A stretch of DNA of 64,000 nucleotides, from assembly GCA_937910695.1 (NCBI GenBank), contig CALEMW010000054.1, forward strand, positions 13,831 through 77,830, given 5' to 3'. The notes under the pieces were generated by a model. The model was not told the origin of the DNA, searched no databases, and saw only the letters and a list, made by a program, of their open reading frames with translations. Shown here one piece after another: positions 10,328 through 44,673 of this stretch; the stretch's first letter is position 1; each line of letters begins with the position of its first letter. The position numbers and the translations under genes are program-made. The DNA is from an uncultured bacterium (GTDB taxonomy: Bacteria > Krumholzibacteriota > Krumholzibacteriia > LZORAL124-64-63).

Positions 10328-10700
10328 GATGGCCTCCAACATGAGATCGTGGACTCGACGTTCTAGTCCCTAGGTTGCTCAATGCGAATGCAAAATCAAG
10401 TTCAGATCCAAAATCCCCATTGAATTCATGGGTGTTACATCGTTTCGAATATCATATATCATTAATACGATCACTCTACACCTAGTCGATTACTAGGATT
10501 ATACCTGAATAGACAGCGTCTTCATATTTCACAACTTACAGTTTTTTGGAAATGGATCTCATTGTTGCTTATCTCATTCGGGATCATCAGGTTAGAACAT
10601 CGATCATTTGTGAGGAGAATTCGGGGTTCGTCCATCAACGTTAAGAAAACAACGTCCTGATCCATGTGGGAGAGCTTTCGAGCCTCCCGGGGACGGAACT

Positions 10701-11330
10701 TCAGCCGGTCAGACCCAAGCTGTAGAACCCCTCGCCTCGCTGGGCGTCCGGCCGGAACCCCATGGTCTCGAGATAGCGGCGGTGTTCTTCTCCAGCTGCG
10801 TGCGCCGTGTATTGACGTAAACCGCCGTCGAGATAATCCGCACGACGATCGCGATAAAAAAAACGGGCACACTGAAGGTCGCGATAGCTGGGAATCACAT
10901 AGTCGAGCCCTATGACGACGTCGTCGCCGTCGCGGCGGCAGACCACCAGGCCGACCGGAAGCATGTTGCGCAAGATGAAGACGATGGTCGCGCCCTCGAG
11001 GCTCCGGCGCTCGAAACAGGGGAAGAAGCGGGCGATGTCGCCGGCGTGAAAATCGAGAAAACGCCCCAGGTATGCATTGTCGGCCCGAGATATCTCCAAC
11101 AGCTCGAAGGTATCTTCCAGCCGCCTCATCCGCAGGAGGTAGGCCACGTTCACCACGGCGATGAAACCGTTCACCACAAGAACGGGATGTGCTCCCACCA
11201 ACCAGCCATATATCGCGAAGACTACGGCGCCGATGAGATTCAACACTCTCAGTTTCACGATCGAACTCATCGTCAGCGACACGGCAACCAGCACCGACGC
11301 CGCATATCCCAGAATGTCCATCCACTCCAT
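10701..11330 (-). CDS. Membrane protein: N-terminal 3-TM YgjV-like domain plus C-terminal soluble domain (possibly GNAT-like)
   Basis: Hydrophobic N-terminus 'ILGYAASVLVAVSLTMSSIVKLRVLNLIGAVVFAIYGWLVG'. C-terminal '...RRYLETMGFRP...GEGFYSL'. Overlapping 727-aa antisense ORF is R-rich artefact. Confidence 0.4.
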   Translation of the reverse strand: MEWMDILGYAASVLVAVSLTMSSIVKLRVLNLIGAVVFAIYGWLVGAHPVLVVNGFIAVVNVAYLLRMRRLEDTFELLEISRADNAYLGRFLDFHAGDIARFFPCFERRSLEGATIVFILRNMLPVGLVVCRRDGDDVVIGLDYVIPSYRDLQCARFFYRDRRADYLDGGLRQYTAHAAGEEHRRYLETMGFRPDAQRGEGFYSLGLTG

Positions 11331-11408
11331 CTGTACTCTCCATCATTCGGGTCGGCACACATGGTAGGCCGAGATGGAGCGAGGGACAAACCGTGAGAAA
11401 ACGGGAAC

Positions 11409-12536
11409 CTATTCGACGAGACTCGACAGAAAGACACCCGCAGCCACCGCCGAGCCGATCACCCCGGCCACGTTGGGAGCCATGGCATGCATGATCAGGA
11501 AGTTCTGCGGATCCTCTTTTGCACCCACCATCTGGCAGACCCGCGCCGAGTCGGGCACGGCGGATACGCCGGCCGCGCCGATGATCGGGTTGATCTTGTC
11601 CTTGAAGACCAGGTTCATGCCCTTGGCGAACAGGATGCCGGCGGCCGTGGCCACGGCGAACGACGCCGCGCCGAGCACGAAGATCTTGATGGACGAAGGC
11701 GTGAGAAACACCGATGCATCGGTGCTCGTGCCCACACAGAGACCGAGCAGGATGGTGATGGTGTCGATCAGGGCGTTGCGCGCCGTCTTGGCCAGACGTT
11801 CGGTCACGCCGCTTTCCTTGAGCAGGTTGCCGAAGAAGAGCATGCCCAGCAGCGTGATGGCCCCCGGCGCGATCATGGCCGACAGCAGGAAGGCCACGAC
11901 CGGGAAGGTGATCCGCAGGCGCTTGCTCACAGGACGCGAGGGCTTCATGCGGATCAGCCGTTCTTCGCGCGTGGTGAGCAGCTTGATGATGGGCGGTTGG
12001 ATGACCGGCACCAGCGCCATGTACGAATAGGCGGCGATGGCGATGGGTCCCAGGAACTCCGGCGCCAACTGCGAGGCGAGGAAGATGGCCGTGGGACCGT
12101 CGGCGCCGCCGATGATGCCGATGGCCGCCGCCTGGTTCACCGCGAACCCCATGGCGAGGGCTCCGAAGAACGTGATGAAGATGCCCGCCTGCGCCGCGGC
12201 GCCCAGCATGATCAGCCGCGGATTCGAGAGCATGCAGCTGAAGTCGGTCATGGCCCCGATGCCCAGGAAGATCAGCGGCGGATACCATCCCTTGCTCACG
12301 CCCTGATAGAGCACCGACAGCACGCTGCCTTCCTCGTACACGCCGATGTTCATGCCCTCGGAATAGGGAATGTTGCCGACGAGGATGCCGAAGCCGATGG
12401 GCACCAGCAGCAGCGGCTCGTAGTCTTTGACCACGGCGAGGTAGATGAACAGGCACCCGACGATGAGCATGACCAGGTTGCCCCAGCTGAAGTTGCCCAG
12501 GGCGCCGACCTGCAGGAATTCCCAGAGAACGTCCAT
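11409..12536 (-). CDS. Na+-translocating decarboxylase beta subunit (OadB/MmdB/GcdB family)
   Basis: 375-aa polytopic membrane protein matching the OadB family along its length ('GFGILVGNIPYSEGMNIGVYEEGSVLSVLYQGVSKGWYPPLIFLGIGAMTDF'). Confidence 0.85.
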   Translation of the reverse strand: MDVLWEFLQVGALGNFSWGNLVMLIVGCLFIYLAVVKDYEPLLLVPIGFGILVGNIPYSEGMNIGVYEEGSVLSVLYQGVSKGWYPPLIFLGIGAMTDFSCMLSNPRLIMLGAAAQAGIFITFFGALAMGFAVNQAAAIGIIGGADGPTAIFLASQLAPEFLGPIAIAAYSYMALVPVIQPPIIKLLTTREERLIRMKPSRPVSKRLRITFPVVAFLLSAMIAPGAITLLGMLFFGNLLKESGVTERLAKTARNALIDTITILLGLCVGTSTDASVFLTPSSIKIFVLGAASFAVATAAGILFAKGMNLVFKDKINPIIGAAGVSAVPDSARVCQMVGAKEDPQNFLIMHAMAPNVAGVIGSAVAAGVFLSSLVE

Positions 12537-12539
12537 GGC

Positions 12540-12938
12540 CTACTCGAACTCGACCAGTTGCTGGTTTTCGCGCACGCTGTCGCCGGCGCCGACGAGCACG
12601 GCCTTGACCCGGCCGGCTCCCGGCGAGACGATGGCGGTGTTCATCTTCATGGCCTCGATGATGATCAGGTCCTGGCCCTGAGCGACGTCGTCCCCCGCCT
12701 TGCACTTGACCTCGATGACCGTCCCTGCGATGGGCGACACCACACCGCCGCTGCCTCCGGCCGACGGAACAGGTGCCTGCTGGGCGACCGGTGCCGACGA
12801 CGGCGCGGAAGCCGACAACGCCTGCGTCGCCGTCATCTGGGGCAGGGCTCCCGTCGGGCCGAACTCGTCGCGCTTGGCGTCGAGGACCTCCACGTCGACC
12901 TCGTAGGCGACGCCGTGGACGGTGATCTTCAACTTCAT
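12540..12938 (-). CDS. Biotin carboxyl carrier subunit (biotinyl domain) of the decarboxylase
   Basis: 'IIIEAMKMNTAIVSPGAGRV' biotinylation motif (EAMKM). Ala/Pro-rich linker. Confidence 0.8.
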   Translation of the reverse strand: MKLKITVHGVAYEVDVEVLDAKRDEFGPTGALPQMTATQALSASAPSSAPVAQQAPVPSAGGSGGVVSPIAGTVIEVKCKAGDDVAQGQDLIIIEAMKMNTAIVSPGAGRVKAVLVGAGDSVRENQQLVEFE

Positions 12939-12955
12939 TTCGTACTCCTATCGGG

Positions 12956-13312
12956 TCAACGGTGTCGCACGTTCTTGCGTTCGATCAGATGGGATCCCTG
13001 CAGCTGGGACCGCCCCTGGGCCGACCACGGGCTGCGTTTGTGGTCCGCCGGCATGAGCCGCCGGATGCTGCTGATCCTGAAGCGGCCGCGTAGCACCGTG
13101 GCGGCGGCGGCCGCGATGAGCACGACGGTGGTCGCGTCGATGGTCGGCTCTCTGTTGTAGGCGTCGGCATCGCGGGCCTTCTCCTGGTGCCGCCATTTTT
13201 CGTCGAGCTGTCGGATGCCCGAGATCGTCATGGCGATGATCATCAACACCGCAAAGACGATCAGCAGACCGACGAGGGCCAACGGCAGGTTTTGGACAAG
13301 CAACTCGGACAT
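12956..13312 (-). CDS. OadG-family small membrane subunit of Na+-pumping decarboxylase
   Basis: Single N-terminal TM 'LALVGLLIVFAVLMIIAMTISGI'. Sits between the carboxyltransferase and BCCP genes. Confidence 0.6.
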   Translation of the reverse strand: MSELLVQNLPLALVGLLIVFAVLMIIAMTISGIRQLDEKWRHQEKARDADAYNREPTIDATTVVLIAAAAATVLRGRFRISSIRRLMPADHKRSPWSAQGRSQLQGSHLIERKNVRHR

Positions 13313-13321
13313 CGCGTGCTC

Positions 13322-14887
13322 CTAGAGGGGAATCAGCCCGTGCTTTTTCTGGGGCCGCTGCTCCCGCTTGGATTTGAGGATCTCCAGGGACTGGGCGATG
13401 AAGATCCGCGTGTCGGCGGGTTCGATGATGTCGTCGACGAGGCCGTGGGCGGCCGCCTCGTAGGGGTTGGCGAAGGCTTCGGTGTACTCGTCCAGCTTCT
13501 GTCGACGCGCGGCAGCAGGGTCGTCGGCCCCGGCGATCTCCTTGCGGTAGATCACGTTCACGGCCCCCTCGGCCCCCATCACGGCGATCTCGGCGCTGGG
13601 CCAGGCGGCCACGCGGTCGGCGCCCATGTCCTTGCCGCACATCGCCAGGTAGGCGCCGCCATAGGCCTTGCGCACGATGATCGTGATCTTGGGCACCGTG
13701 GCGGCGCCGTAGGCGAAGAGCATCTTGGCGCCGTGGCGGATGATGCCGCCGTACTCCTGCTGCACGCCGGGCATGAAACCCGGCACGTCGACGAAGGTGA
13801 CCAGGGGAATGTTGAAGGCGTTGCAGAAACGGATGAAGCGCGACGACTTGTCGCTCGAGTCGATGTCGAGCACTCCCGCCTTGTTCATGGGATTGTTGGC
13901 GACCACGCCGACGGTGGCCCCCTCCATGCGCCCGAAGCCGATGATGATGTTCGGCGCCCACTGCTCCTGGACTTCCATGAAGTCGCCGCCGTCGAGGACG
14001 GCGCGCAGCACCTGGTGCATGTCGTAGGGCTGACGGGGATCGTCGGGCACGATGGAGTTGAGGGCGGGAATCGGCCCCACCTCGTCGTCGTGCAGCTCGG
14101 GGTAGACCGGCGCCTCTTCGGTGTTGTTGCTGGGCAGGAACGAGAGCAGGCGCTTGGTGATTTCGGCGGCCTCGGCGCCGCACGACGCTTCGAAGTGCAC
14201 CACGCCCGAGTAATGAGTATGGCTGTACACGCCGCCCAGGTCTTCGGCGGTGACTTCTTCGCCGGTGACCTGCTTGATCACCGACGGGCCGGTGATGAAC
14301 ATCTGACCCTCGCGGCGCACCTGGATGATGAAGTCGGTCAACGCCGGCGAGTAGGCCGCGCCGCCGGCGCAGGGGCCGGCGATGATGCTGATCTGGGGCA
14401 CGACCCCGGACATCAGCACGTTGCGGTTGAAGATGCCGCCGTAGCCGGCCAGCGAGTCGACACCCTCCTGGATACGGGCGCCGCCGCTGTCGTTGATGAA
14501 GATGAAGGGATCGCCGGTCTTCAGGGCGTCGTCCATCACGCCGTGGATCTTCCGCGCGGTGGCTTCGCCCACGGCGCCGCCGGCGACGGTGAAGTCCTGG
14601 CTGGCTACGTAGACGGGACGTCCGCCGAGCAGGCCGCTGCCGGTCACCACGCCCTCGCCGGGAAACTCCTTGTCCTGCATCCCGAAGTTGGTGCAGCGGT
14701 GCTTCATGAAGAGGTGGGTTTCCAGGAACGTGTCCGGGTCGAGCAGCATGGCCAGTCGCTCGCGGGCGGTGTGCTTGCCGGCGGCGTGGAGCTTTTCGAT
14801 ACGGTCGGCGCCGCCGCCCAGGTACAGGCGTTCGCGACGCTCGAGGAGCTGTTCGATCTTCGTCGGCTCAGGTGTGGGCTCGGCCAT
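13322..14887 (-). CDS. Acyl-CoA carboxyltransferase subunit (methylmalonyl-CoA decarboxylase alpha / propionyl-CoA carboxylase beta family)
   Basis: 521 aa. 'GGGADRIEKLHAAGKHTARERL', 'SGGARIQEG', 'ISIIAGPCAGGAAYSPALTDF', 'RKAYGGAYLAMCGK' carboxyltransferase motifs. First gene of the 4-gene operon. Confidence 0.85.
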   Translation of the reverse strand: MAEPTPEPTKIEQLLERRERLYLGGGADRIEKLHAAGKHTARERLAMLLDPDTFLETHLFMKHRCTNFGMQDKEFPGEGVVTGSGLLGGRPVYVASQDFTVAGGAVGEATARKIHGVMDDALKTGDPFIFINDSGGARIQEGVDSLAGYGGIFNRNVLMSGVVPQISIIAGPCAGGAAYSPALTDFIIQVRREGQMFITGPSVIKQVTGEEVTAEDLGGVYSHTHYSGVVHFEASCGAEAAEITKRLLSFLPSNNTEEAPVYPELHDDEVGPIPALNSIVPDDPRQPYDMHQVLRAVLDGGDFMEVQEQWAPNIIIGFGRMEGATVGVVANNPMNKAGVLDIDSSDKSSRFIRFCNAFNIPLVTFVDVPGFMPGVQQEYGGIIRHGAKMLFAYGAATVPKITIIVRKAYGGAYLAMCGKDMGADRVAAWPSAEIAVMGAEGAVNVIYRKEIAGADDPAAARRQKLDEYTEAFANPYEAAAHGLVDDIIEPADTRIFIAQSLEILKSKREQRPQKKHGLIPL

Positions 14888-16616: not shown

Positions 16617-16872
16617 ATGCCTCCTTTCCTGACTGCGACGAGCATATCCGAACAACTCCGATTCGTCGAGCAAATGCCCCTTCTCCACACAGGAACTACG
16701 AAAGAAATAGAGCAAATGCCTGATGCCGGAGTCGTTGAATTGCCGCCATCTCCCGTGCAACAATCCATTCGGCGCCGCCAAGGGGACCGCCAGCTGAGGA
16801 ACCTGAGCCGCTTCCCTGTGGTATCCGGGTTCTATGTTCTTGTTACTATATTCTCATTACGGGGAGGAACCG

Positions 16873-18690
16873 ATGAACCCCACGCGATCGATCGATCCCG
16901 CTCGCCTCGCCGTCCTGATTGTTCTTGTGACCGTGGTCCTGATGGGATCGGTCGCCTGCAACTCGGGACAGAGCGGAGTCAAAGGCTGGAGCGCCGGCAC
17001 GGACCTCGCCGCCGTTTCGATGCACAAAACCCGCGCCGCTAAAATGCCTGGTCTGGCCACCAAGGCCGCCGAATCCTTCTTCGGCACCTTCGAGACCGAC
17101 GACACGCAGCTCGACGACGGCAGCTACGTGGACCTCTACAACCTGTCCGCCGAAGCAGGCGCCGAGATCACGATCTCGATGATCTCCAGCGACGTCGACT
17201 CCTACATCCTGCTCTACCGCGTCGTCGACGGCGGTACCGAACTCGTCGCCCAGGACAACGACAGCTACGGCGACGGCGACGCCCGCCTGACCGTCACCAT
17301 GCCCTCAGCCGGCGCCTACATCATCGCCGCCAACACGGCCGTCGCCGGCGAGACCGGAGGCTACCTCCTGCAGTACGACATGGAGTCCCCCTTCGACGCC
17401 GCGCCGGTCAATGTGACGGCGGGCGGTGCGCTTCAGTTCGACACCGTGGTCACCGGCACCCTCGACGCCAATGACTCGACCGACCAGGAAGGCCGACTCT
17501 ATGAGCTGTTCACCCTGAGCGGAACCGAAGGCCAATACCTGGACCTGCACCTGGAATCCAACGACTTCGACACCGTGATTTCCCTGTTTACCGGTACTCT
17601 CGACGCCCCGGACGTCTACGCCTCCAACGACGACATCGAAGTGGGCGTCGACGCCAACTCGCGCCTGACCGGCACCCTGCCGCAGACCGCCACCTACACG
17701 ATCCAGGTCAAGGCCTACTCCGGCGGCGGCAGCTACACGTTGACGACGACCGGGGAACCCCCCGTGCCGGCCGGCCCCGTGGTCCACGACTGGGCCCAGC
17801 TCTATCCAGGCGGCGGCGATCCCGCCGGCCGCTACGCCCTGATCGTGGGCATCGACGACTATCCCGGCACCGCCAACGATCTGGGCAGCTGCATCGCCGA
17901 TACCCGCGTGATGAAGGACGCCCTGATCCGCCGCTTCGGCTTCGACCCCGCCAACATCGTCGTGCTGCACGATGCCGAAGCCAATCGCGAGCACATCATG
18001 AACGCCTTCACCCGCCACCTGGGCCAGGCCGGCCCCGCGGGCGCGGCTGTGTTCTACTACTCCGGTCACGGCCTGCAGATGGATGACAACTACGGCCTGG
18101 CCGCCGAATTCGACTTCGAAGACGACGGCGTGGACGAGGCCATCGCCATCTGGGCCGTCGACCAGAAGAATTCGGTGATCCTCGACGACGAGCTGGGCAT
18201 GCTGGCCGAAGGCATCGAAGCCGGACGCATGCTCGTCATGCTCGATTCCTGCCACTCGGGCACCGGCACCCGCGCCCGCGGCGAAAAGCAGATGCGCAAC
18301 TTCGCCCAGATGAAGGACCAGTTCACCCTGCCCGCCGAGTACTACGGCGTGAAAAGCGGTGCGCCGGCGGCCGGCACCGGGGGCGAGAACATGAAGGAAC
18401 TCGTCACCCGCAACCGCGACTACGTGCTGCTGACCGCCGCCGCTCCCGACGAGACGGCCCTGACCGGCAGCGACTGGCCCGACTACGGCGGCGTAGCGAG
18501 CGTGTTCACCTACCACCTCGTGAAGAACTTCGACGCCGCGGGCCCGAACGACACCTTCGAGGACATCGCCCTGCGCGTCCGCGAACAGTCGCGCGACTTC
18601 ACCATGTCCACTCAGGACCACGTGCAGACGGCCCAGTTCGAGGGTTCGCAGCTGGGCGCCGGCGTGCAGGCGTTCCTGGGCGGGCGTTGA
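16873..18690 (+). CDS. Secreted lipoprotein with two PPC (pre-peptidase C-terminal) domains followed by a peptidase C14 caspase-like domain (orthocaspase)
   Basis: GGGGAGG RBS. Lipobox 'LMGSVAC'. PPC signatures ('DDGSYVDLYNLSAEAGAEITISM...DSYILLY', 'NDSTDQEGRLYELFTLSGTEGQYLDLHL...TVISLF'). Caspase 'YALIVGIDDY', His in 'FYYSGHG', Cys in 'DSCHSG'. Confidence 0.8.
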   Translation: MNPTRSIDPARLAVLIVLVTVVLMGSVACNSGQSGVKGWSAGTDLAAVSMHKTRAAKMPGLATKAAESFFGTFETDDTQLDDGSYVDLYNLSAEAGAEITISMISSDVDSYILLYRVVDGGTELVAQDNDSYGDGDARLTVTMPSAGAYIIAANTAVAGETGGYLLQYDMESPFDAAPVNVTAGGALQFDTVVTGTLDANDSTDQEGRLYELFTLSGTEGQYLDLHLESNDFDTVISLFTGTLDAPDVYASNDDIEVGVDANSRLTGTLPQTATYTIQVKAYSGGGSYTLTTTGEPPVPAGPVVHDWAQLYPGGGDPAGRYALIVGIDDYPGTANDLGSCIADTRVMKDALIRRFGFDPANIVVLHDAEANREHIMNAFTRHLGQAGPAGAAVFYYSGHGLQMDDNYGLAAEFDFEDDGVDEAIAIWAVDQKNSVILDDELGMLAEGIEAGRMLVMLDSCHSGTGTRARGEKQMRNFAQMKDQFTLPAEYYGVKSGAPAAGTGGENMKELVTRNRDYVLLTAAAPDETALTGSDWPDYGGVASVFTYHLVKNFDAAGPNDTFEDIALRVREQSRDFTMSTQDHVQTAQFEGSQLGAGVQAFLGGR

Positions 18691-20999
18691 GCCGCGGCCT
18701 GAAACGAGTGCTCCCGAGGAGGTGCGGCCCCGCGCCGCACCTCCTTCCTCTTCTGCTGATCCTGTCCATCCTGGCGGCGGAAGCCGCCGCCGCCGAGCGC
18801 CATGCCCTGGTCGTGGGCATCAATCTCTATGCTCCGGACGGAACAGAGCAGGCCACCGTGGCTCCCGACCGCGGCGGCTGGGGCAACCTCGAGGGCGCCG
18901 TGGACGACGCCCGGGCCATGGCGTCGCTCCTGGAACACCGATTCGGATTTCCCGCCGACAACATCGCCGTGCTGCTCGACCGCGAGGCGACCCGCGTCGC
19001 CATCCTCGACGGGCTGCGACGCACCCTGCTGGAACAGTCGCAGCCGGGCGATACGGCTGTGTTCTTCTATGCGGGTCACGGCTCCCAGGTGCGCAACACG
19101 GCGTCGGACGAGCTCGACGGCAAGGACGAAACCCTCGTACCCGCCGACGCCTGCCTCGGTGCCCCCGACATCCGCGACAAGGAATTGAAGCGTCTGCTCT
19201 GGCAGTCGTTGGAGCGCGGCGTGCGGGTTGTGTTCGTGAGCGACAGCTGCCACAGCGGTTCGGTGACCCGGGGCGTGGCCCCGCCGCGGGCCCGCGCCCT
19301 GCCGCCGGCAGCCGGCTCGGTCGACGATCCCGACGGCGCCCCCGACCCCGCCGGCCATCCCCTGGCGATCATGATCACCGCCACGCAATCCCATCAGCGG
19401 GCCCAGGAGATCGACGTCGACGGCGGCCGGCGCGGCGCCTTGAGCTGGTCGCTGCAGCGGGCGCTGACGTCGTTGCCTGTGGACGCCAGTGCCCGCGACG
19501 TGTTCGCCGCCGCCCGCGGTCTGCTGCGTTGGCAGGGTGTAAGCCAGGATCCGGGACTGGAGGGACGCGGCGAGAGCCTGAATGCGCCACTGTTCGGCGC
19601 TGCTGGACAAGCGAAAGAAGGCGACAGCAATGTTGCCCGTACAATCGTGGCAGTGAGCGGCGTTGAAAGCGGCGTCGTGAGCCTGGACGGCGGTTTGGCC
19701 CTGGGGCTCGCCGTCGGCTGCGAGTTGGCCGCATCCGGAGGCGACGGCCCCCTGCTGCGCATCGACGCCGTCGACATCACCGGCGGCCGTGCATCGGTCT
19801 TGCAGGCCGACCTTCCTGCTCCTGTTCCAGGCACGCTCTACGAAGTCGTCCGCTGGGCGCCGCCGCCGGGTGAACCGTTGCGGTTCTGGCTTCCACCTCA
19901 AACGCCGACCGAAGATGCTGCAGCCATGATCCGCGCCCTGCAGAACGCAGCCTCAAGGCACCGAGTCCTGACGATGTCCGAACCCACAGTCACTCTTCCC
20001 ACCCATTCGGTCATGACGACCACCGAAGGCTGGTTCATGACAGGCGGCGGTCTGAACGTCCCGATCGGCTCCCCCGGCGACGTCGACCATCTCCTCGCCG
20101 ACGCGGTCGCTCACTACCAGGAATCCTTGAATCTGCTGATCCTGGCTCCTCCTCCCAGAGGGCTCGCAGACAAACTCGAAGAGGCCCTGACGCTCCGATC
20201 CGGAGGGATCCAACTCGTTTCCGATCTCGGCCGCGCCGACTACTTCCTGATGATCGACCCCGACTCCGGATTCGGTTCCTGGGTCAATCGCGCCGCAACC
20301 CAGGACACGATCGGCTGCGCCATGCCCCGCCGCACCCGCGGTGTTCGTTTCGATGACGAAAAACACGGCCTGGCGGCAGCGGCCCTGGCCGACCAGGCTT
20401 CGAGGCTGGCGCGAATCCGCGGCTGGCATCAGCTCCAGGGACCCGGCGACGATCCGGCGTTCCCCTACCGTCCGGTCGGCCTCCGCGGCGCCGACGGCCA
20501 GCTGCGCGACCTCGACCAACCGGTCCACGACGGCGAGAGCCTGAGTCTCGTGCTCCGAGCCGACGAAGCGGGCCGCCGCGGCCTCGCCCGTCTGGCCAGG
20601 GCCTACAAGGCGACGCCCCGCCATCTCTACGTGTTTGCTGTGGATCAACTTGGGAACGGTTTTCCTCTGCTGCACGAACTCTTCCAGCCCGAGGCGCGGG
20701 GACTGCCTCCCGAGGAGATCGTACTGCGCCAGCCGGGCCAGGAATTCCTGGTCGAAGTCGGTGAGCCCTACGGCACCGACACGATCTTCGTGCTGGCCAC
20801 AGAGGAGCCCCTGCCGTCGATGGAGGTGTTCGACTTCGGAGGCGTGGGCGTGCGCTCCGCCCCCCTGGGCGCAACGTCGCCGTTGGCGGACCTGCTCTAC
20901 GGCGTCGGCACACAACGGCGCGGCGATCTACCCGCCGTTCCGCTGAACTGGAGCGTGTCGAAGTGGACGGTGCTCAGCAAGGCGCCAGCCGGGCGCTAG
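18687..20999 (+). CDS. Secreted caspase-like peptidase C14 (N-terminal domain) with ~500-aa C-terminal region of unknown function
   Basis: 4-nt overlap with the previous gene. Signal peptide 'LLPLLLILSILAAEAAAA'. 'HALVVGINLY', His in 'FFYAGHG', Cys in 'VSDSCHSG'. Exact start uncertain (non-ATG). Confidence 0.75.
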   Translation: MSRGLKRVLPRRCGPAPHLLPLLLILSILAAEAAAAERHALVVGINLYAPDGTEQATVAPDRGGWGNLEGAVDDARAMASLLEHRFGFPADNIAVLLDREATRVAILDGLRRTLLEQSQPGDTAVFFYAGHGSQVRNTASDELDGKDETLVPADACLGAPDIRDKELKRLLWQSLERGVRVVFVSDSCHSGSVTRGVAPPRARALPPAAGSVDDPDGAPDPAGHPLAIMITATQSHQRAQEIDVDGGRRGALSWSLQRALTSLPVDASARDVFAAARGLLRWQGVSQDPGLEGRGESLNAPLFGAAGQAKEGDSNVARTIVAVSGVESGVVSLDGGLALGLAVGCELAASGGDGPLLRIDAVDITGGRASVLQADLPAPVPGTLYEVVRWAPPPGEPLRFWLPPQTPTEDAAAMIRALQNAASRHRVLTMSEPTVTLPTHSVMTTTEGWFMTGGGLNVPIGSPGDVDHLLADAVAHYQESLNLLILAPPPRGLADKLEEALTLRSGGIQLVSDLGRADYFLMIDPDSGFGSWVNRAATQDTIGCAMPRRTRGVRFDDEKHGLAAAALADQASRLARIRGWHQLQGPGDDPAFPYRPVGLRGADGQLRDLDQPVHDGESLSLVLRADEAGRRGLARLARAYKATPRHLYVFAVDQLGNGFPLLHELFQPEARGLPPEEIVLRQPGQEFLVEVGEPYGTDTIFVLATEEPLPSMEVFDFGGVGVRSAPLGATSPLADLLYGVGTQRRGDLPAVPLNWSVSKWTVLSKAPAGR

Positions 21000-21514: not shown

Positions 21515-22225
21515 ATGAGCGAATTCCGGCCCCAGAACGACACGGCTCTCTTCAGCACTCCTGCGACCCAGGCGGCTGCTCAAGACGTCGAACGCTTCAT
21601 CCCCCGCGTCTACAACCACGTGATGGGCGCCATCGTGCTGCTGATCGCCCTGGAGGTCTGGTACTTCAAGACCGACCTCGCTTATACGATGGCCTCGGCG
21701 ATGCTCGGAGTGAACTGGCTGATGGTCCTCGGCGCGTTCATGGTCGTCGGCTGGCTGGCCCGCGGCGCCGCCCACCGGGCTCATTCCCTGCGCACGCAGT
21801 ATCTCGCGCTCGCTGGTTACGTGGTGGCCGAATCGATCATCCTGGTGCCCATGCTGGTCATCGCCGAGTACAGGGCCCCCGGCACAATCACGAGCGCGGG
21901 GCTGCTGACCCTGCTGGGATTCGCCGGCCTGACGGCCATCGCCTTCCGCTCGCGCCGCGACTTCACGATGTACACGGCGCTGCTGCAGTGGGCGGGCGTG
22001 CTGGCGCTGGTGGCCATCGTCGGCAGCGTGGTGTTCGGCATGCATCTGGGCACCTGGTTCTCGGTGCTGATGGTGGGCGTGGCCGGCCTGGCGATCCTGC
22101 GCGACACCTCGGCGATCATCCACCACTACCCGTCCGACCGGTACGTGGCGGCGGCGCTGGAGCTGTTCGCTTCGGTGGCACTGATGTTCTGGTATCTGTT
22201 GAGGTTGCTGTCGGGACGACGTTAG
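21515..22225 (+). CDS. Bax inhibitor-1 / YccA (TMBIM) family membrane protein
   Basis: 236 aa, 7 predicted TM. Matches the BI-1/YccA family along its length ('FIPRVYNHVMGAIVLLIALEVW...'). Confidence 0.8.
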   Translation: MSEFRPQNDTALFSTPATQAAAQDVERFIPRVYNHVMGAIVLLIALEVWYFKTDLAYTMASAMLGVNWLMVLGAFMVVGWLARGAAHRAHSLRTQYLALAGYVVAESIILVPMLVIAEYRAPGTITSAGLLTLLGFAGLTAIAFRSRRDFTMYTALLQWAGVLALVAIVGSVVFGMHLGTWFSVLMVGVAGLAILRDTSAIIHHYPSDRYVAAALELFASVALMFWYLLRLLSGRR

Positions 22226-31990: not shown

Positions 31991-32101
31991 GTTGCGTGAC
32001 AGGCGGAGGCTCCAACCCTGAGCCGCACGTTAGAATGCCCCTTATTGATCGTACCTGTTCGGCGAGTTATTGCGGCCCTATTCCTATCGAAACCGGAGAT
32101 C

Positions 32102-39516: not shown

Positions 39517-39894
39517 CACCGACGTTTCGGGCAGGTTCGAACGGTTCACGGAAGCTCCTTGGTTCGAGGTCGGCGAGAGTATGAGGGTTCGAATTGTGCC
39601 GTGCTTGCGAAAACTGGACGGAGATATGGATTCTCGGAGTGTCCGGCAAGAGATAGAACTCCGTGGAACACAAATACGATTGATCGACTCCTGTATTTTT
39701 GTAAAATTATCATCATATTGAATTTTACAGATCATAATATAAGTAACCTGTGATACAATCGCATACTCGTCAGATATCGACATCTTTAGCGCCGATGAAC
39801 GCCTTTTAGGCCTAATCGGCATATGACAGGTCCGGAGTTGGATCAAAATCGCAACATGGTGTGGCGACACGATCCGACGGAGAAAGGAAGGCCC

Positions 39895-42800
39895 ATGAAA
39901 CGCACTCTTGTGATGGTCACCCTGATTTTCGCTACCCTATGCGCCTCGATGGCATCGGGCGCGACGCAGGCCATCCCCCTGCAGGCCGAACGCACGGCCC
40001 TCGACCTGGTCGACACCCGTGGCGACGCCCTCCAGTTCCGCGTGAACATCGCCGAGCTGCAGGCCATGGACGTGACCACGTCCGCCGGCGATTTCTCCCG
40101 GATCGTCATCCCCGGGTTCCACAACTCGATGATCGACGGCAGCCCCGAGCTGCCCATGATGAATCGGTTGTTGGAACTTCCTTTCGGCGCCAATGCGCGC
40201 GTCGAAGTGGTTTCGGCATCGCGGCGCGTGGTGCGATTGGCCGACCACGGCATCACCACACCGCTGATGCCCCACCAGCCCAGCGTCTCCAAGAGCGCCG
40301 ACCTGGACAATCTGCCCTTCATTTACGACCGGGCCGCCTATGCCGGCACCGTGGCGCGTGAACTGGTGCGGGTCGTCGAGCTGGGTCAGCTGCGTTCCCG
40401 CGGGCTCGTCCGTTGCGAGATTTCCCCGGTGGAGTACCTGCCTGAAAGCGGCGAGCTGATCATCCACGACCAGATCGAATTCCGCGTCATATTCGACGGC
40501 GTCGACCGCGCCGGCGAGGCCGACATGCTGGCCCGAACCTGGAGCCCCTTCTTCTCGCCCCTGTTCACCAACGTTGCAGGATCGCGGGCGAACCACTTCG
40601 ACTTCCCCGACCTCGTCAAGAACCCCGTGACGATGGTCGTCGTGACCCCGCCCGAGTTCCAGTACGTGTTGACCGACTTCGTCAACTGGAAGACCGAGCG
40701 CGGCTTCAACATGATCATGGGCGTGACCGGCACCCCCGAAGTGGGCGCCACCGCCGCCTCGATCCAGTCCTACCTGCACGGCCTCTACAACGCCGCCACG
40801 CCCGAGCTGCCGGCCCCGAGCTTCGTGCTCTTCGTCGGCGACGTGGCTCAGATGCCCACGTTCACCGAGGGCGGCGACGCCACCGACCGTCCCTACTGCG
40901 CGGTCGACGGCGACCTCTATCCGGACATGTACTACGGCCGCTTCTCGTGCACCAACGTGAGCCAACTCCAGGCTCAACTCGACAAGACGATGATGTACGA
41001 CCAGTTCACGATGCCCGACCCCAGCTACCTGGGCAACGTGACGATGATCGCCGGCGTCGACGGGAGCTTCGCCCCGACCCACGGCAACGGCCAGATCAAC
41101 TACGGCACCGAGCACTACTTCAACGCCGCCCACGGCATCAACAGCTACACGTACCTGTATCCCGCTTCGGACGCCGCCGGCGCTCCGGCCGAGATCGTGG
41201 CGCATGCGAGCGAGGGCGTTGGCTTCATCAACTACACCGCCCACGGCAGCCAGACAAGCTGGTCCGACCCCGCCTTCACCCAGACGAACATCAACAGTCT
41301 GACGAACACCGGGAAGTATTTCCTGGCCATCGGCAACTGCTGCCTGACCTCGACCTACGACTACGGCGAGTGCTTCGGCGAGACCTTCCTGCGCGCCGCG
41401 GGTAAGGGCGCCGTGGGTTACATCGGCGGCTCCAACTCGACCTACTGGGACGAGGACTACTGGTGGGGCGTGGGCTTCCACGCCAGCTCGCAGATCGACG
41501 GCTCGGCCTATCCCGTCGAGAGCACGGGCATCGGCGTGTACGACGGCATCTTCCACGACCACGGCGAGGCTCCCGCCCAGCAGTACGTGACCAACGACGC
41601 CGTCGTGTTCTGCGGCAACATGACCGTCACCGAATCCGGATCCAGCCGTGAGACCTACTACTGGAACATCTACAACCTGTTGGGAGACCCTTCCCTGTCG
41701 ACCTACATGGGCGTGCCGACGACCAACCCCGTCAGCCATCAGCCCGTGTTCACGAACTCCCCGGACCTCGTCATCGACGCGGCCCCGGGCAGCTACGTGG
41801 GTCTGACCCAGGGCGGCGTCATCTTCGCCGCCGGCACGATCCCCGCGGGCGGCCGTCTGGCCCTGCCCATCAACGGCGTGCTCACCCCGGGCACGGCCAA
41901 GCTGGTCGTCACTGCCCAGAACCGTGAGCCCTATGTCGAGGTCGTTCCGGTCATCGTGCCGGCGACCGTGCTGATCGACCCCGCGGCCATCGACGCCAAC
42001 GTCGCCACCGACGTGACCGTCACGGTCTACGGCGAGGACGGCGTGACCCCCGTGGTCGGCCTGAGCGTCTGGGCCGAGGGCCTGGGCTATGCCACCGCGC
42101 CGGTGCTGACCGACGCCCTGGGCGTGGCCGTGCTTAACGTGACCTACCCCTACGGTCCGACCGTGGACATCGTGGGCCGCAACATGGCCGACCCGTACGA
42201 GCTCTTCCGCGAGCCCCTGACGGTCAACGCCTTGGCCCTGGCTTCACCCGATCTGTCGGTTTCGACCGGCATCGGCATGGCCGACATGTTCCCGCTGAAC
42301 CTGCCCGCCGACCTGAACGCCACGGTCGCCGAGCCCGGGTTCACGCTGCACGCCTTCCTGCCCGACGGCAGTGAGCTGACCACCGGCGCCGCGTCGATGA
42401 GCATCACCGCCGGCGACTTGGGCCTTGTGACCGGCGTGATCGCGGTCAGCGGCTACGACATCTACACCGAGTCCTTCGACGTCATCGAAGCCTTCGGCAC
42501 CATGACGGGCGTCGTGACTGCCGGCGGCGGCGGCGCGGCCGGTGCGGTCGTGCGTCTGATCGACGGCGGCGGCATCGAAGCCTACAGCGCGACCTGCGAC
42601 GGCGCGGGCGCCTACGACTTCGGCGGCGACATCCTGGTCGCCAACTACGACGTCGTGATCGACTACTTCGGCTATCTGCACTATGAGATGCCGTACTTCG
42701 TGAACTTCGGCGCCAACGTCTACGACATCGCGTTGACGGCGGCCCCGAGCGGCGTACTCACCGGTACGCTGAGCGATTCGGTCACCGGCGAGCTGCTCGA

Positions 42801-44673
42801 GGGCGGCATCGTGCGCGTGTTCCGTCATGACACAGGCACGCTCTACACCGAGGCCGTGAGCGACGTCGCCGGCACGTTCACGACCACGGCACTGCCCTAC
42901 TTCAACTACGACATCATGGTGCGTGCCTACCATCACGTGCCGGTGATCATCACCCTTGAAGTCGCCGACCCGGTCGTCACCAAGGACTTCGTCCTCGAGC
43001 CGACCAACGGCGACCTGCTGATCATCGACGACAACGGCGCTGCGGCGGCCAAGGCCGACAAGTTCGACGAGAAGGGCAACTTCCTCGCGGCCGGTTATAT
43101 GAGCGAGGCTCCCAAAACGGCCGCCCAGATGGCCAGCACGCTGGAGCTCGTCGGCTACAGTGTGACCGTCGAGACTTCAGGTACGACGGACCCGTCGTCC
43201 TGGTCGATGTACGACCTGGTCATCGTGTCCTGCGCCGACAACACGTCGGCCCTGCCCGACGCCGTTATCCGCAATGCGTTGATCAACTATGTCGACGCCG
43301 GCGGCAAGCTGCTGCTCGAAGGCGGCGAAGTCGGCTACAACCATTACGGCAGCGGTGCCTTCGCCGAGCGCGTCATGCACTCGACGGACTGGAACCACGA
43401 CGCCAGCGGCAACTTCGTCATCGCGGAGCCCACGCACCCGGTGATGAGCGTGCCCAACGCGGTCGAGGACAACTCACCGGTCACCTACAACGGCTACGGA
43501 GACCAGGACGCCATGGCGCCCCTGGGCGACGCCGTGATGGTCGGTACTTGGGCCACCTACCCGACCGACGCCAGCGTGATCTGCTACGATCCGAACCCGG
43601 CGCCCGAGGGCGGTCAGATCGTCTTCATGTGCTTCAACTACGGCGCTCTGCCCGGCAGCTGCGCCACGGGCATTCTCGAGAACGCAGTGAACTGGCTGCT
43701 GGTGCTCGAGGCCGGCACTTCGTCGGTGACCGGTCAGGTCCTGCTGTCCGGTGAAACGAACCATGCGGGCATCCTCGTCGAGGCCGTGCCCGGCGGCGGT
43801 TCCACCTTCACGGCGACCGACGGTACGTACACCCTGCCCGGCCTGTTCGCCGGCGAGTACACGATCCGCGCTTCGAAGTCCGGATGGGGAACACAGGCCC
43901 AGGCTGTTTCTCTTGCCGAGGGACAGGCTACGACGGTGGATCTGGTGCTCACACCGGTCCTGGAGTTCGACGGCTGCAACCAGCCCGCGCTGGCGATTCC
44001 TGATAACAGCCCGGCCGGTGTGTCCGACGTGATGACCGTCGATCTGGGCTACGGCGCTTCGACGACCGTATCGGAGATCTCGGTCTTCGTTGACGTGACC
44101 CACACCTGGCAGGGCGACCTTCTCGTCACCCTGACCTCGCCCATGGGCACGAGCGTCGTGCTGCACAACCGCACCGGCAGCAGCGCCGACAACATCTACG
44201 GCTGGTACCCGACCGAACTGGTTCCCGCAGGCGACCTCGGCGTGTTCGCCGGGCAACTGACCAACGGCGACTGGACCCTGTCGATCAGCGACAACGCCGG
44301 CGCCGACACCGGCTCGTTGAACGAGTGGTGCCTGCACATGGTCTTCAGCGGCGTGGTGACCAACGAGGGCGAACCTGGCGACAGCGCCGTTCCGTCGGTC
44401 TACAAGCTCCACTCCAACTACCCGAACCCATTCAACCCCATGACCAACGTCAAGTTCGAGCTGTCCCGCCCGGGCCTGACCAAGGTCAGCGTGTACGATG
44501 TGAGCGGCCGTCTGATCAAGACGCTCGTGAACGAAGACCTGCCGGCTTCGGTCTACACCGTGACCTGGGACGGCACCAACAGCCGCGGCCAGCGCGTGGC
44601 CAGCGGCACGTACTACCTCCGCCTGGTCTCCGATGACTTCCAGGCGGTTCACAAGATGACGATGCTGAAGTAG
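39895..44673 (+). CDS. Gingipain-like cysteine peptidase (family C25) with propeptide, multiple Ig-like/CarboxypepD_reg-like domains, a proprotein-convertase P-domain and a T9SS type-A C-terminal sorting domain (1592 aa)
   Basis: RBS GAAAGGAAGG. Signal peptide. Catalytic His 'INYTAHGSQTSWSDPAF' and Cys 'FLAIGNCCLTSTYDYGECFGETF' (RgpB-like). P-domain 'VTHTWQGDLLVTLTSPMGTSVVLHNRTG'. C-terminus 'YPNPFNPMTNVKFELSRPGLTKVSVYDVSGRLIKTL'. Confidence 0.85.
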   Translation: MKRTLVMVTLIFATLCASMASGATQAIPLQAERTALDLVDTRGDALQFRVNIAELQAMDVTTSAGDFSRIVIPGFHNSMIDGSPELPMMNRLLELPFGANARVEVVSASRRVVRLADHGITTPLMPHQPSVSKSADLDNLPFIYDRAAYAGTVARELVRVVELGQLRSRGLVRCEISPVEYLPESGELIIHDQIEFRVIFDGVDRAGEADMLARTWSPFFSPLFTNVAGSRANHFDFPDLVKNPVTMVVVTPPEFQYVLTDFVNWKTERGFNMIMGVTGTPEVGATAASIQSYLHGLYNAATPELPAPSFVLFVGDVAQMPTFTEGGDATDRPYCAVDGDLYPDMYYGRFSCTNVSQLQAQLDKTMMYDQFTMPDPSYLGNVTMIAGVDGSFAPTHGNGQINYGTEHYFNAAHGINSYTYLYPASDAAGAPAEIVAHASEGVGFINYTAHGSQTSWSDPAFTQTNINSLTNTGKYFLAIGNCCLTSTYDYGECFGETFLRAAGKGAVGYIGGSNSTYWDEDYWWGVGFHASSQIDGSAYPVESTGIGVYDGIFHDHGEAPAQQYVTNDAVVFCGNMTVTESGSSRETYYWNIYNLLGDPSLSTYMGVPTTNPVSHQPVFTNSPDLVIDAAPGSYVGLTQGGVIFAAGTIPAGGRLALPINGVLTPGTAKLVVTAQNREPYVEVVPVIVPATVLIDPAAIDANVATDVTVTVYGEDGVTPVVGLSVWAEGLGYATAPVLTDALGVAVLNVTYPYGPTVDIVGRNMADPYELFREPLTVNALALASPDLSVSTGIGMADMFPLNLPADLNATVAEPGFTLHAFLPDGSELTTGAASMSITAGDLGLVTGVIAVSGYDIYTESFDVIEAFGTMTGVVTAGGGGAAGAVVRLIDGGGIEAYSATCDGAGAYDFGGDILVANYDVVIDYFGYLHYEMPYFVNFGANVYDIALTAAPSGVLTGTLSDSVTGELLEGGIVRVFRHDTGTLYTEAVSDVAGTFTTTALPYFNYDIMVRAYHHVPVIITLEVADPVVTKDFVLEPTNGDLLIIDDNGAAAAKADKFDEKGNFLAAGYMSEAPKTAAQMASTLELVGYSVTVETSGTTDPSSWSMYDLVIVSCADNTSALPDAVIRNALINYVDAGGKLLLEGGEVGYNHYGSGAFAERVMHSTDWNHDASGNFVIAEPTHPVMSVPNAVEDNSPVTYNGYGDQDAMAPLGDAVMVGTWATYPTDASVICYDPNPAPEGGQIVFMCFNYGALPGSCATGILENAVNWLLVLEAGTSSVTGQVLLSGETNHAGILVEAVPGGGSTFTATDGTYTLPGLFAGEYTIRASKSGWGTQAQAVSLAEGQATTVDLVLTPVLEFDGCNQPALAIPDNSPAGVSDVMTVDLGYGASTTVSEISVFVDVTHTWQGDLLVTLTSPMGTSVVLHNRTGSSADNIYGWYPTELVPAGDLGVFAGQLTNGDWTLSISDNAGADTGSLNEWCLHMVFSGVVTNEGEPGDSAVPSVYKLHSNYPNPFNPMTNVKFELSRPGLTKVSVYDVSGRLIKTLVNEDLPASVYTVTWDGTNSRGQRVASGTYYLRLVSDDFQAVHKMTMLK

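Follow-up and report, generated by a model that had tools for sequence, protein, structure and literature searches.

Two adjacent genes encode a pair of C14 peptidases

Two adjacent genes on the forward strand were identified in the 64,000-nucleotide stretch of DNA analysed here (the window). Gene 1 (16873..18690, +) starts with ATG, 5 nt downstream of a Shine-Dalgarno-like GGAGG (16863..16867, +), and encodes a 605-aa PPC-PPC-C14 metacaspase-type peptidase with a predicted export signal, probably a lipoprotein. Gene 2 (18687..20999, +) encodes a 770-aa C14 peptidase, also predicted to be exported, followed by a conserved 455-aa C-terminal module. The same two genes, of 605 and 770 aa and with the 4-nt overlap, were also called independently on the source contig, in agreement with our open reading frames and with an earlier sequence-only reading of this DNA. 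The overlap requires a TTG start for gene 2, which shares the sequence TTGA with the stop of gene 1, while an alternative in-frame GTG at 18708 would leave a 17-nt gap and no overlap. The tight linkage of the genes was thus upheld, but the translational coupling claimed in that reading would hang on the TTG start. We propose that the pair forms a two-gene operon.

Protein 1 is a probable lipoprotein with two PPC domains

The N-terminus of protein 1 reads MNPTRSIDPARLAVLIVLVTVVLMGSVAC, and the pattern of a signal peptide with a lipobox (LMGSVA-C29; 16873..16959, +) places the lipobox-like Cys at residue 29. Most family members have a Cys at this place; it follows a hydrophobic segment in at least 83 of the 120 homologues and is missing from the closest relative, P0122. 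Based on such sequence patterns and their conservation across homologues, from which all export and lipobox calls here were made, protein 1 is probably a lipoprotein. The first PPC domain (residues 86-152; 17128..17328, +) exceeded the Pfam cut-off (PF04151, E=7.7e-7, 30.3 bits vs 25.9 bits). The second, PPC-like domain (residues 212-280; 17506..17712, +) fell below it (E=0.028) and was recognised as an internal repeat, sharing 29% identity with the first over 105 aa (E=5e-9) and aligning across the protein 1 family (alignment A2). The lipobox and the two PPC domains noted earlier were therefore both recovered.

The C14 domain of protein 1 (17830..18591, +) matched Pfam Peptidase_C14 at residues 320-573 (E=1.8e-22), far exceeding the cut-off of 21.4 bits, and contains the motifs AVFYYSGHG and LDSCHSGTG. 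His399 (18067-18069) and Cys460 (18250-18252) are invariant in alignment A2, with Asp343 and Asp458 at the positions of the S1 pocket, and profile searches matched the metacaspases AtMC4 and Yca1 with E about 1e-23. We found 278 homologues at E<=0.001, mostly combining PF04151 with PF00656. The PPC fusion had been regarded as unusual, a view that is overstated, as hundreds of members with the PPC+C14 architecture are already present in databases. PPC does not occur in the main text of a survey of prokaryotic metacaspases (Asplund-Samuelsson et al. 2012, PMC3501461).

Protein 2 combines a C14 domain with a conserved three-part module

Protein 2 starts with a Sec-type signal peptide pattern (18687..18791, +) composed of a basic N-region, LLPLLLILSILAA and an Ala-rich C-region. 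An N-terminal hydrophobic segment is conserved in 111 of the 120 homologues, consistent with the signal peptide proposed earlier, and in the AF2 model residues 19-30 form a helix while pLDDT is low over residues 1-13. The C14 domain (18798..19559, +) matched Peptidase_C14 at residues 38-291 (E=1.5e-21, again far beyond 21.4 bits) and contains VFFYAGHGSQ and SDSCHSGS. His131 (19077-19079) and Cys188 (19248-19250) are invariant in the family alignment A1, and the S1-pocket residues are Asp74 and Asp186. The profile match to Yca1 (4f6o) reached E=1.5e-34. With the AF2 model of protein 2 (pLDDT 88.3), the top Foldseek matches were metacaspases, and the matches of the C14 domain included AtMC9 and GSU0716.

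The remainder of protein 2 had been described as a C-terminal domain of ~500 aa without recognisable motif. A large C-terminal region is indeed present, but it is a conserved module of 455 residues in three parts: a small beta-barrel (residues about 320-401; 19644..19889, +), an alpha/beta domain with a long helix, delimited from the secondary structure of AF2 models (residues about 408-582; 19908..20432, +), and an Ig-like beta-sandwich with a weak DUF4384 match (residues about 595-765; 20469..20981, +). The module has about 1,330 cluster representatives and is confined almost entirely to the fixed C14-module architecture. No solved structure matching the whole module was found, and the alpha/beta domain had neither a Pfam match nor a convincing match among solved structures. 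Homologue searches indicate that the protein 2 family is widespread, with 383 homologues at E<=0.001; among the top 120, most cover at least 91% of the query.

Both proteins retain the residues expected of active metacaspase-type enzymes

Judged by sequence and fold, both proteins are members of Peptidase_C14 and are nearest to metacaspases (Yca1, AtMC4/9, TbMCA2 and GSU0716); profile matches of the pair to Yca1, AtMC4, AtMC9, TbMCA2 and GSU0716 ranged from E=1e-34 to 1e-8. Databases label both families just "caspase family protein". The C14 assignment and the intact His/Cys dyads of the sequence-only reading were confirmed in both proteins by the Pfam matches, the motifs and the invariance of the dyads. 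Two further residues are invariant in both families: one is the Asp of C-x-x-D (or A-x-x-D), the other an Asp that precedes the catalytic Cys by two residues. They correspond to Asp95 and Asp211 of TbMCA2, which accommodate basic P1 residues (PMC4357240, PMC6426788). Since both S1-pocket Asp residues are kept, both enzymes are expected to cleave after Arg/Lys. The catalytic His is followed by acidic loops that line up with an acidic stretch in Yca1, and Ca2+ would probably act as an activator of both enzymes; the fourth Ca2+ ligand of TbMCA2 (Asp after the catalytic Cys) shows no obvious conservation in the pair.

The pair is conserved in certain lineages and clan-CD neighbours are common

Two relatives have the exact pair, and a variant pair was found in one Planctomycetaceae MAG, two Rhodothermales MAGs and one metagenome contig. 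The intergenic spacing is -4 nt in the window and +8, +6 and +1 nt at loci L003, L164 and L029, respectively. An arrangement by chance or by recent tandem duplication without functional link, or a pair containing one inactive pseudo-enzyme, seems extremely improbable. In some phyla, C14 genes often occur in multiple copies (PMC3501461), which would fit such an origin, but proteins 1 and 2 share a mere 34% identity, limited to 174 residues of the p20-like part, and fall into separate deep families; as each has its own large family, they are not tandem duplicates. Moreover, gene order and tight spacing are preserved in two other lineages at 50-63% protein identity, and the dyads, like the pocket residues, are intact and do not vary.

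Conservation as neighbours in related genomes was thus seen in two relatives, while the pairing in its exact PPC-C14 / C14-DUF4384 form is limited to certain lineages. From the protein 2 side, a protein-1-type partner was present in just 4 of the 80 genome loci sampled. Each of the four long contigs with a protein 1 homologue has another C14 gene one or two genes away (directly adjacent in three), and the protein 2 C-terminal module was found near protein 1 homologues in none of about 10 short metagenome contigs. A second clan-CD ORF (CHAT or C14) lies within 7 kb of the protein 2 homologue at 50 of 79 genome loci, an apparent enrichment judged against a rough estimate of background clan-CD gene density. 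Thirty of these ORFs are CHAT and the rest C14, and 11 are directly adjacent on the same strand. The general pattern is a protein 2 homologue beside some second clan-CD protease. Exported TPR-CHAT proteins are the commonest neighbours, and the CHAT neighbours whose N-termini were inspected mostly carry signal peptides or lipoboxes.

Exported or clustered caspase homologues have precedents. N-terminal TM helices or probable signal peptides occur in about 15% of prokaryotic metacaspases, and 20 of 217 metacaspase-containing operons hold two or three metacaspase genes, in four groups only (Alphaproteobacteria, Bacteroidetes, Cyanobacteria and Deltaproteobacteria), according to PMC3501461; the structure of the periplasmic TPR-CHAT domain of DdvA has been determined (PMC11506125). 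The extracytoplasmic location had been called unusual, which was overstated because exported metacaspases and multi-metacaspase operons were already noted in 2012. A single fixed family recurring next to clan-CD partners that vary was not found in the passages of PMC3501461 that were read.

Other recurrent neighbours of protein 2 homologues are Ser/Thr kinases with DUF4384, CHASE2 proteins and ECF sigma factors. They recall envelope signalling, in which the pair would act as site-1-type proteases cutting the periplasmic part of an anti-sigma factor or kinase on an envelope or phage cue. The periplasmic TPR-CHAT of Myxococcus DdvA is proposed to self-cleave ahead of RseP (PMC11506125), some Csx30 proteins, which serve as substrates for the TPR-CHAT protease Csx29 within a sigma-factor circuit, end in a DUF4384 domain (bioRxiv 2022.08.17.504292), and metacaspase operons with sigma-70 factors, Fibrobacter included, are on record (PMC3501461). 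Nevertheless, no sigma factor, anti-sigma factor or kinase adjoins the pair in the window or the closest relative, and we regard this role as quite improbable. No regulator pointing to a pathway was found beside the pair within the window.

The flanking genes in the window and the closest relative encode DinB, Band_7 (window only), a glyoxalase, a BI-1 family protein and RND efflux components. The BI-1 (Bax inhibitor-1 family) gene, located two genes downstream of the pair and syntenic in the relative, would suit executioners of cell death or anti-phage defence resembling the caspase-like defence proteases of the bacterial cytoplasm. The PADLOC 'caspase' model gave a generic match, and reviews commonly associate orthocaspases with programmed cell death (PMC7475262); both point in the same direction. 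Such a role is very unlikely, however: both proteins are predicted to be exported, no gasdermin, NTPase sensor, CRISPR or CBASS genes were found near the pair, the flanks are syntenic housekeeping genes rather than a defence island, and the PADLOC and NCBIfam matches are limited to the shared caspase domain, with the NCBIfam score far below its cut-off.

Clan-CD genes are numerous in the window, as first noticed, with two C14 genes, one C25 and one TPR-CHAT gene cut by the window end. The C25 gingipain-like protein (39823..44673) was confirmed, but the gene at 62017-64000 encodes TPR repeats alone within the window, and its CHAT domain was seen on a longer contig, past the end of the window. 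An M14 carboxypeptidase and an S49 peptidase are also encoded, and both the C25 and M14 proteins carry T9SS sorting domains. This richness in secreted proteases would be in line with foraging, whereby the two enzymes are independent, gingipain-like degradative proteases and their adjacency reflects co-regulated nutritional enzymes without any relay. Characterised metacaspases, by contrast, work by limited proteolysis. According to the Pfam description, PPC domains typically occur in degradative proteases that are secreted, and Arg/Lys specificity would parallel gingipains (PMC4357240). The T9SS C-terminal sorting domain of the window's secreted proteases is nevertheless absent from both proteins of the pair, and therefore both probably stay in the cell envelope. 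The recurrent placement of protein 2 homologues beside TPR-CHAT, Ser/Thr kinase-DUF4384, CHASE2 and ECF sigma genes also looks regulatory, not nutritional, and we consider foraging unlikely.

Proposed role of the pair

Our leading interpretation, held tentatively and with a little less than even confidence, is that the pair consists of coupled, exported, catalytically competent C14B endopeptidases that act together in the cell envelope. Protein 1 would be tethered to a membrane through its N-terminal lipid anchor, and its PPC beta-sandwich domains, placed ahead of the protease domain, probably bind a substrate or partner. Protein 2 would be released to the periplasm once its signal peptide is cleaved, and its rigid, family-specific module most likely docks partners or substrates. 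The two enzymes could be linked in a zymogen-activation relay, with one processing the other, or could share envelope substrates that undergo limited rather than bulk proteolysis.

Comparison with known systems

The type I metacaspases and prokaryotic orthocaspases (Yca1, TbMCA2, MaOC1; MEROPS C14B) are the nearest sequence and fold matches, having in common with the pair PF00656, the His-Cys dyad in GHG / D-x-C-H-S-G, the two Asp residues that make the S1 pocket acidic and the acidic loops that follow the catalytic His. Unlike them, the pair carries predicted export signals (lipobox or Sec signal) without a Pro-rich or zinc-finger prodomain, and is fused to PPC domains or the 455-aa module, which distinguishes it from characterised metacaspases. 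Among the fold matches to the protein 2 C14 domain, GSU0716 of Geobacter sulfurreducens (PDB 3bij, a bacterial C14 protein from structural genomics) had the highest TM-score (TMt 0.70-0.72, 26% identity). It also matched in sequence searches, but it is a single-domain protein of 285 aa without accessory module.

Gingipains (C25), like other secreted clan-CD proteases, are extracytoplasmic cysteine proteases, with Arg/Lys specificity, Ca2+ stabilisation and an Ig-like fusion (PMC4357240), and the pair resembles them in its predicted features. They differ in family (C25, not C14), in having a propeptide and in secretion through the T9SS C-terminal domain that the pair lacks. The Myxococcus xanthus anti-sigma factor DdvA provides a periplasmic clan-CD fold with a proposed regulatory cleavage (PMC11506125). 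Its protease domain is CHAT rather than C14, and it is joined to a TM helix and to an anti-sigma domain that binds zinc. The MALT1 paracaspase (caspase-Ig3), in which C14 is followed directly by an Ig-like domain, was among the fold matches. MALT1 is Arg-specific; in contrast to the pair, it is eukaryotic and cytoplasmic with N-terminal death and Ig domains, and its fold match is far weaker (E about 1e-8).

Two adjacent genes encode metacaspase-type peptidases

Two co-directional ORFs, gene 1 (16873..18690 (+), 605 aa) and gene 2 (18687..20999 (+), 770 aa), were found next to each other in the window, which has a G+C content of 64%. The ATG of gene 1 is located five bases past a GGAGG, and the upstream in-frame ATG at 16834 has no GGAGG-like site. 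The TTG start of gene 2 (TTGA) is needed for the 4-nt overlap, and with the in-frame GTG at 18708 the genes would be 17 nt apart; genes 1 and 2 are tightly linked whichever start is used. Identical sequence was present on public metagenome contigs, where independent gene calling gave the same 605-aa and 770-aa proteins with a 4-nt overlap. On the opposite strand, the pair is flanked by a DinB_2 gene upstream and a glyoxalase gene downstream, the end of the latter overlapping the end of gene 2, and genes 1 and 2 therefore constitute a two-gene unit. Scanning the pair with promoter consensus patterns gave no promoter-like site, and gene 2 contained two terminator-like sites, no more than in shuffled controls. 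The antisense ORFs 17305..18621, 18612..19901 and 19953..20915 (all on the minus strand) were treated as high-GC shadows, with the gene calls of the source contig listing plus-strand genes only.

Peptidase_C14 (PF00656) matched residues 320-573 of protein 1 (E=1.8e-22) and residues 38-291 of protein 2 (E=1.5e-21), with scores of 80.6 and 77.6 bits (cut-off 21.4), and CHAT (PF12770) matched neither protein. The dyad of protein 1 (H399/C460) is invariant in an alignment of 37 diverse homologues, and that of protein 2 (H131/C188) in one of 39. ORFs, gene calls, Pfam matches and quoted motifs thus agreed with the sequence-only reading, which had placed two adjacent C14 genes with intact His/Cys dyads here, and the observation of the pair is confirmed.

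When searched against all PDB sequences, both family profiles matched metacaspases and the bacterial C14 protein GSU0716 only. The protein-2 profile matched Yca1 (1.5e-34) and AtMC4 (1.4e-33), followed by AtMC9, TbMCA2 and 3bij, and the protein-1 profile matched AtMC4 (2.3e-23) and also Yca1. The best Foldseek matches of the AlphaFold2 model of protein 2 (pLDDT 88.3, pTM 0.89) were AtMC9, AtMC4 and GSU0716 (TMt up to 0.72), with paracaspase, caspases and legumain-type ligases ranking lower. The model of protein 2 and the profile matches of protein 1 both indicate a caspase/haemoglobinase fold, and the two proteins are new variants within the known metacaspase kind.

The basic-P1 specificity of metacaspases is set by two Asp residues, Asp95 and Asp211 in TbMCA2 (PMC4357240, PMC6426788). 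The equivalent S1-pocket positions, assigned from the C-x-x-D and D-x-C motifs together with HMMER alignments to AtMC4 and Yca1, lie in the C/A-x-x-D motif that follows strand 1 and at position -2 relative to the catalytic Cys. Both are invariant in the two families (D343/D458 in protein 1, D74/D186 in protein 2), from which cleavage after Arg or Lys would be expected for both proteins. Ca2+ dependence is plausible, and the catalytic His of protein 2 is followed by an acidic stretch, SDELDGKDETLVPAD, which aligns with that of Yca1. Set beside these invariant residues and the tight linkage of the genes, a reading of the locus as an unlinked arrangement or as a pair of pseudo-enzymes is highly improbable.

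Both proteins are predicted to be exported

Protein 1 begins with MNPTRSIDPARLAVLIVLVTVVLMGSVAC-NSG, where a basic N-region and hydrophobic core precede a lipobox-like Cys29 (LMGSVA-C29). In pattern counts, a hydrophobic N-terminal segment was detected in 116 of the 120 protein-1 homologues and a lipobox-like Cys after it in at least 83, the latter also being visible in the family alignment. In P0122, the closest relative of protein 1, the signal peptide is a plain one lacking the lipobox Cys, so lipidation is not a fixed trait of the protein-1 family. Protein 2 starts with five basic residues followed by LLPLLLILSILAAEAAAAE, and the same kind of count gave a hydrophobic segment in 111 of its 120 homologues and a lipobox in only 11. 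Export of both proteins, as claimed earlier, is well supported, though not proven, by these N-terminal signal patterns and their conservation across both families. The accompanying claim that an extracytoplasmic location is unusual for prokaryotic caspase homologues was overstated, as signal-peptide metacaspases were reported in 2012 and DdvA carries a periplasmic CHAT domain.

No match to the T9SS C-terminal sorting domain (PF18962, Por_Secre_tail) was obtained in protein 1 or protein 2; because it is absent from both, they were rejected as T9SS cargo, and both C14 proteins probably stay in the envelope. PF18962 is carried by the C25 protease, the M14 peptidase and two other large proteins of the window. 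The M14 carboxypeptidase (44780-47404 (+)) combines an InhA-like MAM domain with a T9SS sorting tail, a 1,032-aa protein (32045-35143 (+)) has the sorting tail as its sole recognisable domain, and a 398-aa protein (5767-6963 (-)) has a weak one. Type IX secretion clearly operates in this organism.

Accessory domains differ between the two proteins

The first PPC (PF04151) repeat of protein 1 scored 30.3 bits against a cut-off of 25.9 bits, and the second fell under it (15.7 bits, E=0.028). The two repeats share 29% identity over 105 residues (E=5e-9), and by this comparison the second PPC-like region is clearly a repeat of the first, bearing out the two PPC domains assigned to this protein before. 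One or two PPC repeats are present per member of the protein-1 family. In protein 1 they are N-terminal to the protease, unlike the arrangement behind PPC's name.

The C-terminal domain of protein 2, in which the sequence-only reading had recognised no motif, proved to be a conserved three-part module with a weak DUF4384 match. Its 460 residues are conserved end to end within the family, and the module folds confidently both in the full-length model and alone (pLDDT 87.2). In the AlphaFold2 models it consists of a small beta-barrel (residues ~320-401), an alpha/beta domain with a long helix at its end (residues ~408-582) and an Ig-like sandwich (residues ~595-765), which holds the sub-threshold DUF4384 match (PF14326, 18.1-20.5 bits vs the 27-bit cut-off). 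A precomputed PF14326 hit is found at the same position in many full-length protein-2 homologues. Most family members keep a G-N-V-E-N-x-x-P stretch in the DUF4384 region, which is missing from the window lineage; an alignment deletion at residues ~660-680 is shared by protein 2 and its two closest relatives (P0002 and P0003). When the module profile was searched against 1.84 billion cluster representatives, 1,330 proteins were matched at E<=0.001, 785 of them at E<=1e-30. In nearly all of them the module occupies residues ~300-770 of a 730-830-aa protein, and the architecture is therefore fixed and family-specific. The fixed 455-residue module, which has no solved counterpart, is well defined as a target for structural work and for studies of its interactions.

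The exact pair is kept in some relatives

Similarity between proteins 1 and 2 is confined to 174 residues of the p20-like part, where identity is 34%, and each protein has its own family of hundreds of homologues. Tandem duplication was accordingly rejected; the pair is not a recent duplicate, a possibility raised with the original observation, and each protein belongs to a separate family.

The pair occurs in the same order in a MAG labelled uncultured Fibrobacteraceae (62-63% protein identity, 8-nt gap) and on a JGI contig (50-55% identity, 6-nt gap). The flanks in the Fibrobacteraceae MAG are largely those of the window: DinB and the decarboxylase genes lie upstream, genes for glyoxalase, BI-1 and RND efflux lie downstream, and two extra genes are inserted. 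In the window, the syntenic decarboxylase set is a Na+-pumping one (10701-14887 (-): carboxyltransferase, OAD gamma, biotinyl carrier and OAD beta). The BI-1/YccA family membrane protein (21515-22225 (+), Pfam Bax1-I E=7.9e-25) is encoded two genes downstream of the pair, and its gene stays near the pair in the related MAG; such a gene next to caspase homologues is curious and probably coincidental.

More distant arrangements vary. A Planctomycetaceae MAG encodes a 1,725-aa protein ending in PPC-like and C14 domains and, one base further on, a protein-2 homologue, and in two Rhodothermales MAGs a protein-1 homologue lies ~1.5 kb off on the other strand. The order is reversed on one metagenome contig, where a 730-aa C14+DUF4384 protein is encoded directly upstream of a protein-1 homologue. 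From the protein-2 side, exact pairing was seen in 4 of the 80 genome loci, and from the protein-1 side it was not seen on ~10 short metagenome contigs, so a strict pair of the two proteins was rejected as a universal rule. As neighbours, then, the two genes are kept in the same order in two relatives but are absent as a pair from most loci elsewhere. That the two enzymes are independent nutritional proteases is, in our view, rather unlikely.

A second clan-CD protease is commonly encoded near protein-2 homologues

ORFs around 80 protein-2 homologues were clustered and classed with HMMs built here, and samples were checked against Pfam. Of 79 protein-2 loci, 50 had another clan-CD protease ORF (300 aa or longer) within 7 kb. 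By a rough estimate from typical clan-CD counts per genome, a clan-CD gene would be expected by chance near a protein-2 homologue in only a few percent of cases. In 30 of these loci the partner is a CHAT protein, usually a TPR-CHAT of 1,000-1,700 aa, and the remaining partners are C14 proteins of other architecture, such as WD40-C14 and Glucodextran_B-C14. Partner and protein-2 homologue are immediate same-strand neighbours in 11 loci, several with 4-nt overlaps; in most other loci they share a strand and are separated by one to three genes. Among the CHAT partners with the N-terminus read, most start with a signal peptide or lipobox. This family-level association of protein 2 with a second, putatively exported clan-CD protease is the most interesting outcome of the analysis.

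Particular arrangements recur within lineages. In Bacteroidales loci (L014, L024 and similar; e.g. L014 4152-9235), a three-gene set encodes, in order, a 555-aa Glucodextran_B+C14 protein, a 336-aa protein without a Pfam match and the protein-2 homologue; members of this 336-aa family recur in 12 loci. In Acidobacteriota/Thermoanaerobaculia MAGs (L026, L036, L047, L074 and L075), TPR-CHAT or CHAT proteins of 1,000-1,200 aa are encoded on both sides of the protein-2 homologue, the downstream CHAT gene often overlapping by a few bases. Other frequent neighbours include Ser/Thr kinases with DUF4384, CHASE2 proteins, a trypsin-PDZ protease, a 139-aa secreted protein family (23 loci) and a 356-aa protein (14 loci). 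From the protein-1 side, additional C14 genes lie no more than one or two genes away on all four long contigs examined; two of these contigs also carry TPR-CHAT genes, and one carries an ECF sigma factor gene. The protein-2 family ranges over Bacteroidota, Acidobacteriota, Rhodothermales, Ignavibacteria, Nitrospira, Planctomycetota, Verrucomicrobiota, Latescibacterota, Gemmatimonadaceae and others.

Clan-CD proteases are also enriched in the window itself. A gingipain-like C25 protease (39823..44673 (+), 1,616 aa) was found as claimed, with Propeptide_C25, C25 catalytic, C25 Ig-like, CarboxypepD_reg repeat, P_proprotein and T9SS sorting domains. The TPR-CHAT gene named by the sequence-only reading (~62017-64000 (+), continuing past the window end) encodes TPR repeats only inside the window, where the CHAT HMM built here had zero matches, but longer contigs of the same organism (L165/L166) carry it as a 966-aa TPR-CHAT protein. 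Its N-terminus (KILLAMAFTLMVASGTWA) is signal-peptide-like, which would make the protein an exported CHAT protease of the sort that usually neighbours protein-2 homologues elsewhere. With four predicted exported clan-CD proteases in 47 kb, the local enrichment noted earlier is real.

Two fusion proteins are also encoded in the window. A 661-aa protein (8357-10342 (-)) joins a multihaem cytochrome c (c7/c3 type, paired CXXCH) to a cytochrome b561/Ni_hydr_CYTB membrane domain, and an 824-aa protein (47481-49955 (+)) joins an MFS transporter domain to a spermidine/spermine synthase domain.

A possible envelope protease module

The pair most likely represents a co-expressed envelope protease module, a reading we hold tentatively. 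Protein 1 would be a tethered PPC-C14 lipoprotein and protein 2 a soluble periplasmic C14 protein bearing a docking module. Both enzymes would cut after Arg/Lys and might be coupled through trans-processing or common substrates, and proteolysis by the pair would be limited. Candidate sites for trans-processing are the invariant Arg195/Arg203, which follow the catalytic Cys in protein 2, and conserved basic residues beyond Cys460 in protein 1. In a wider and more doubtful proposal, the C14-barrel-alpha/beta-DUF4384 family would be the constant component of a widespread, undescribed envelope two-protease system with an interchangeable exported clan-CD partner (TPR-CHAT, WD40-C14, Glucodextran_B-C14 or, here, PPC-C14), working as a periplasmic relay of initiator/executioner type. 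The family has cultured carriers, namely Salinibacter sp. 10B, Algivirga pacifica JCM 18326 and Chitinophagaceae bacterium IBVUCB2, so the two-protease idea is directly testable.

Comparison with known systems

Neither family has a characterised member or a specific NCBIfam model; the NCBIfam model caspase_w_EACC1 scored 31.8-48.5 bits against its 140-bit cut-off. Literature searches combining PPC and metacaspase found no paper on PPC-C14 proteins, and the literature passages retrieved contain no mention of one fixed family paired with a variable clan-CD partner. In PADLOC, the generic 'caspase' model alone matched, over the catalytic domain alone, and no defence partner genes were found in the neighbourhood of the pair. 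A caspase-like anti-phage defence system, gasdermin- or CRISPR-associated, was therefore rejected, as the matches were to the generic caspase domain only and partner genes were absent. More broadly, bacterial caspase homologues are mostly treated as cytoplasmic cell-death or defence enzymes, of which very few have been characterised; for this pair, with its predicted export, a role as executioners of cell death or defence is very unlikely.

A 2012 study describes prokaryotic metacaspases with probable signal peptides and operons of two or three metacaspases (PMC3501461), and DUF4384 together with p20 domains is mentioned in surveys (PMC6426788, PMC7475262). The earlier interpretation was largely right on the identity of the proteins but wrong on their rarity. 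The anti-sigma factor DdvA has a solved periplasmic TPR-CHAT domain with a proposed site-1 protease function (PMC11506125). A site-1-type signalling role would agree with the ECF sigma factor near one protein-1 homologue; for the pair, we regard it as distinctly unlikely.

Caspase-type chemistry outside the cytoplasm has hardly been studied, the main examples being the gingipains and the proposed DdvA mechanism. The two populous families described here have predicted export to the envelope, retain every catalytic and specificity residue, and habitually have a second clan-CD protease gene alongside. If this habitual pairing reflects function, it would imply regulated, possibly cascade-like proteolysis outside the cytoplasm.
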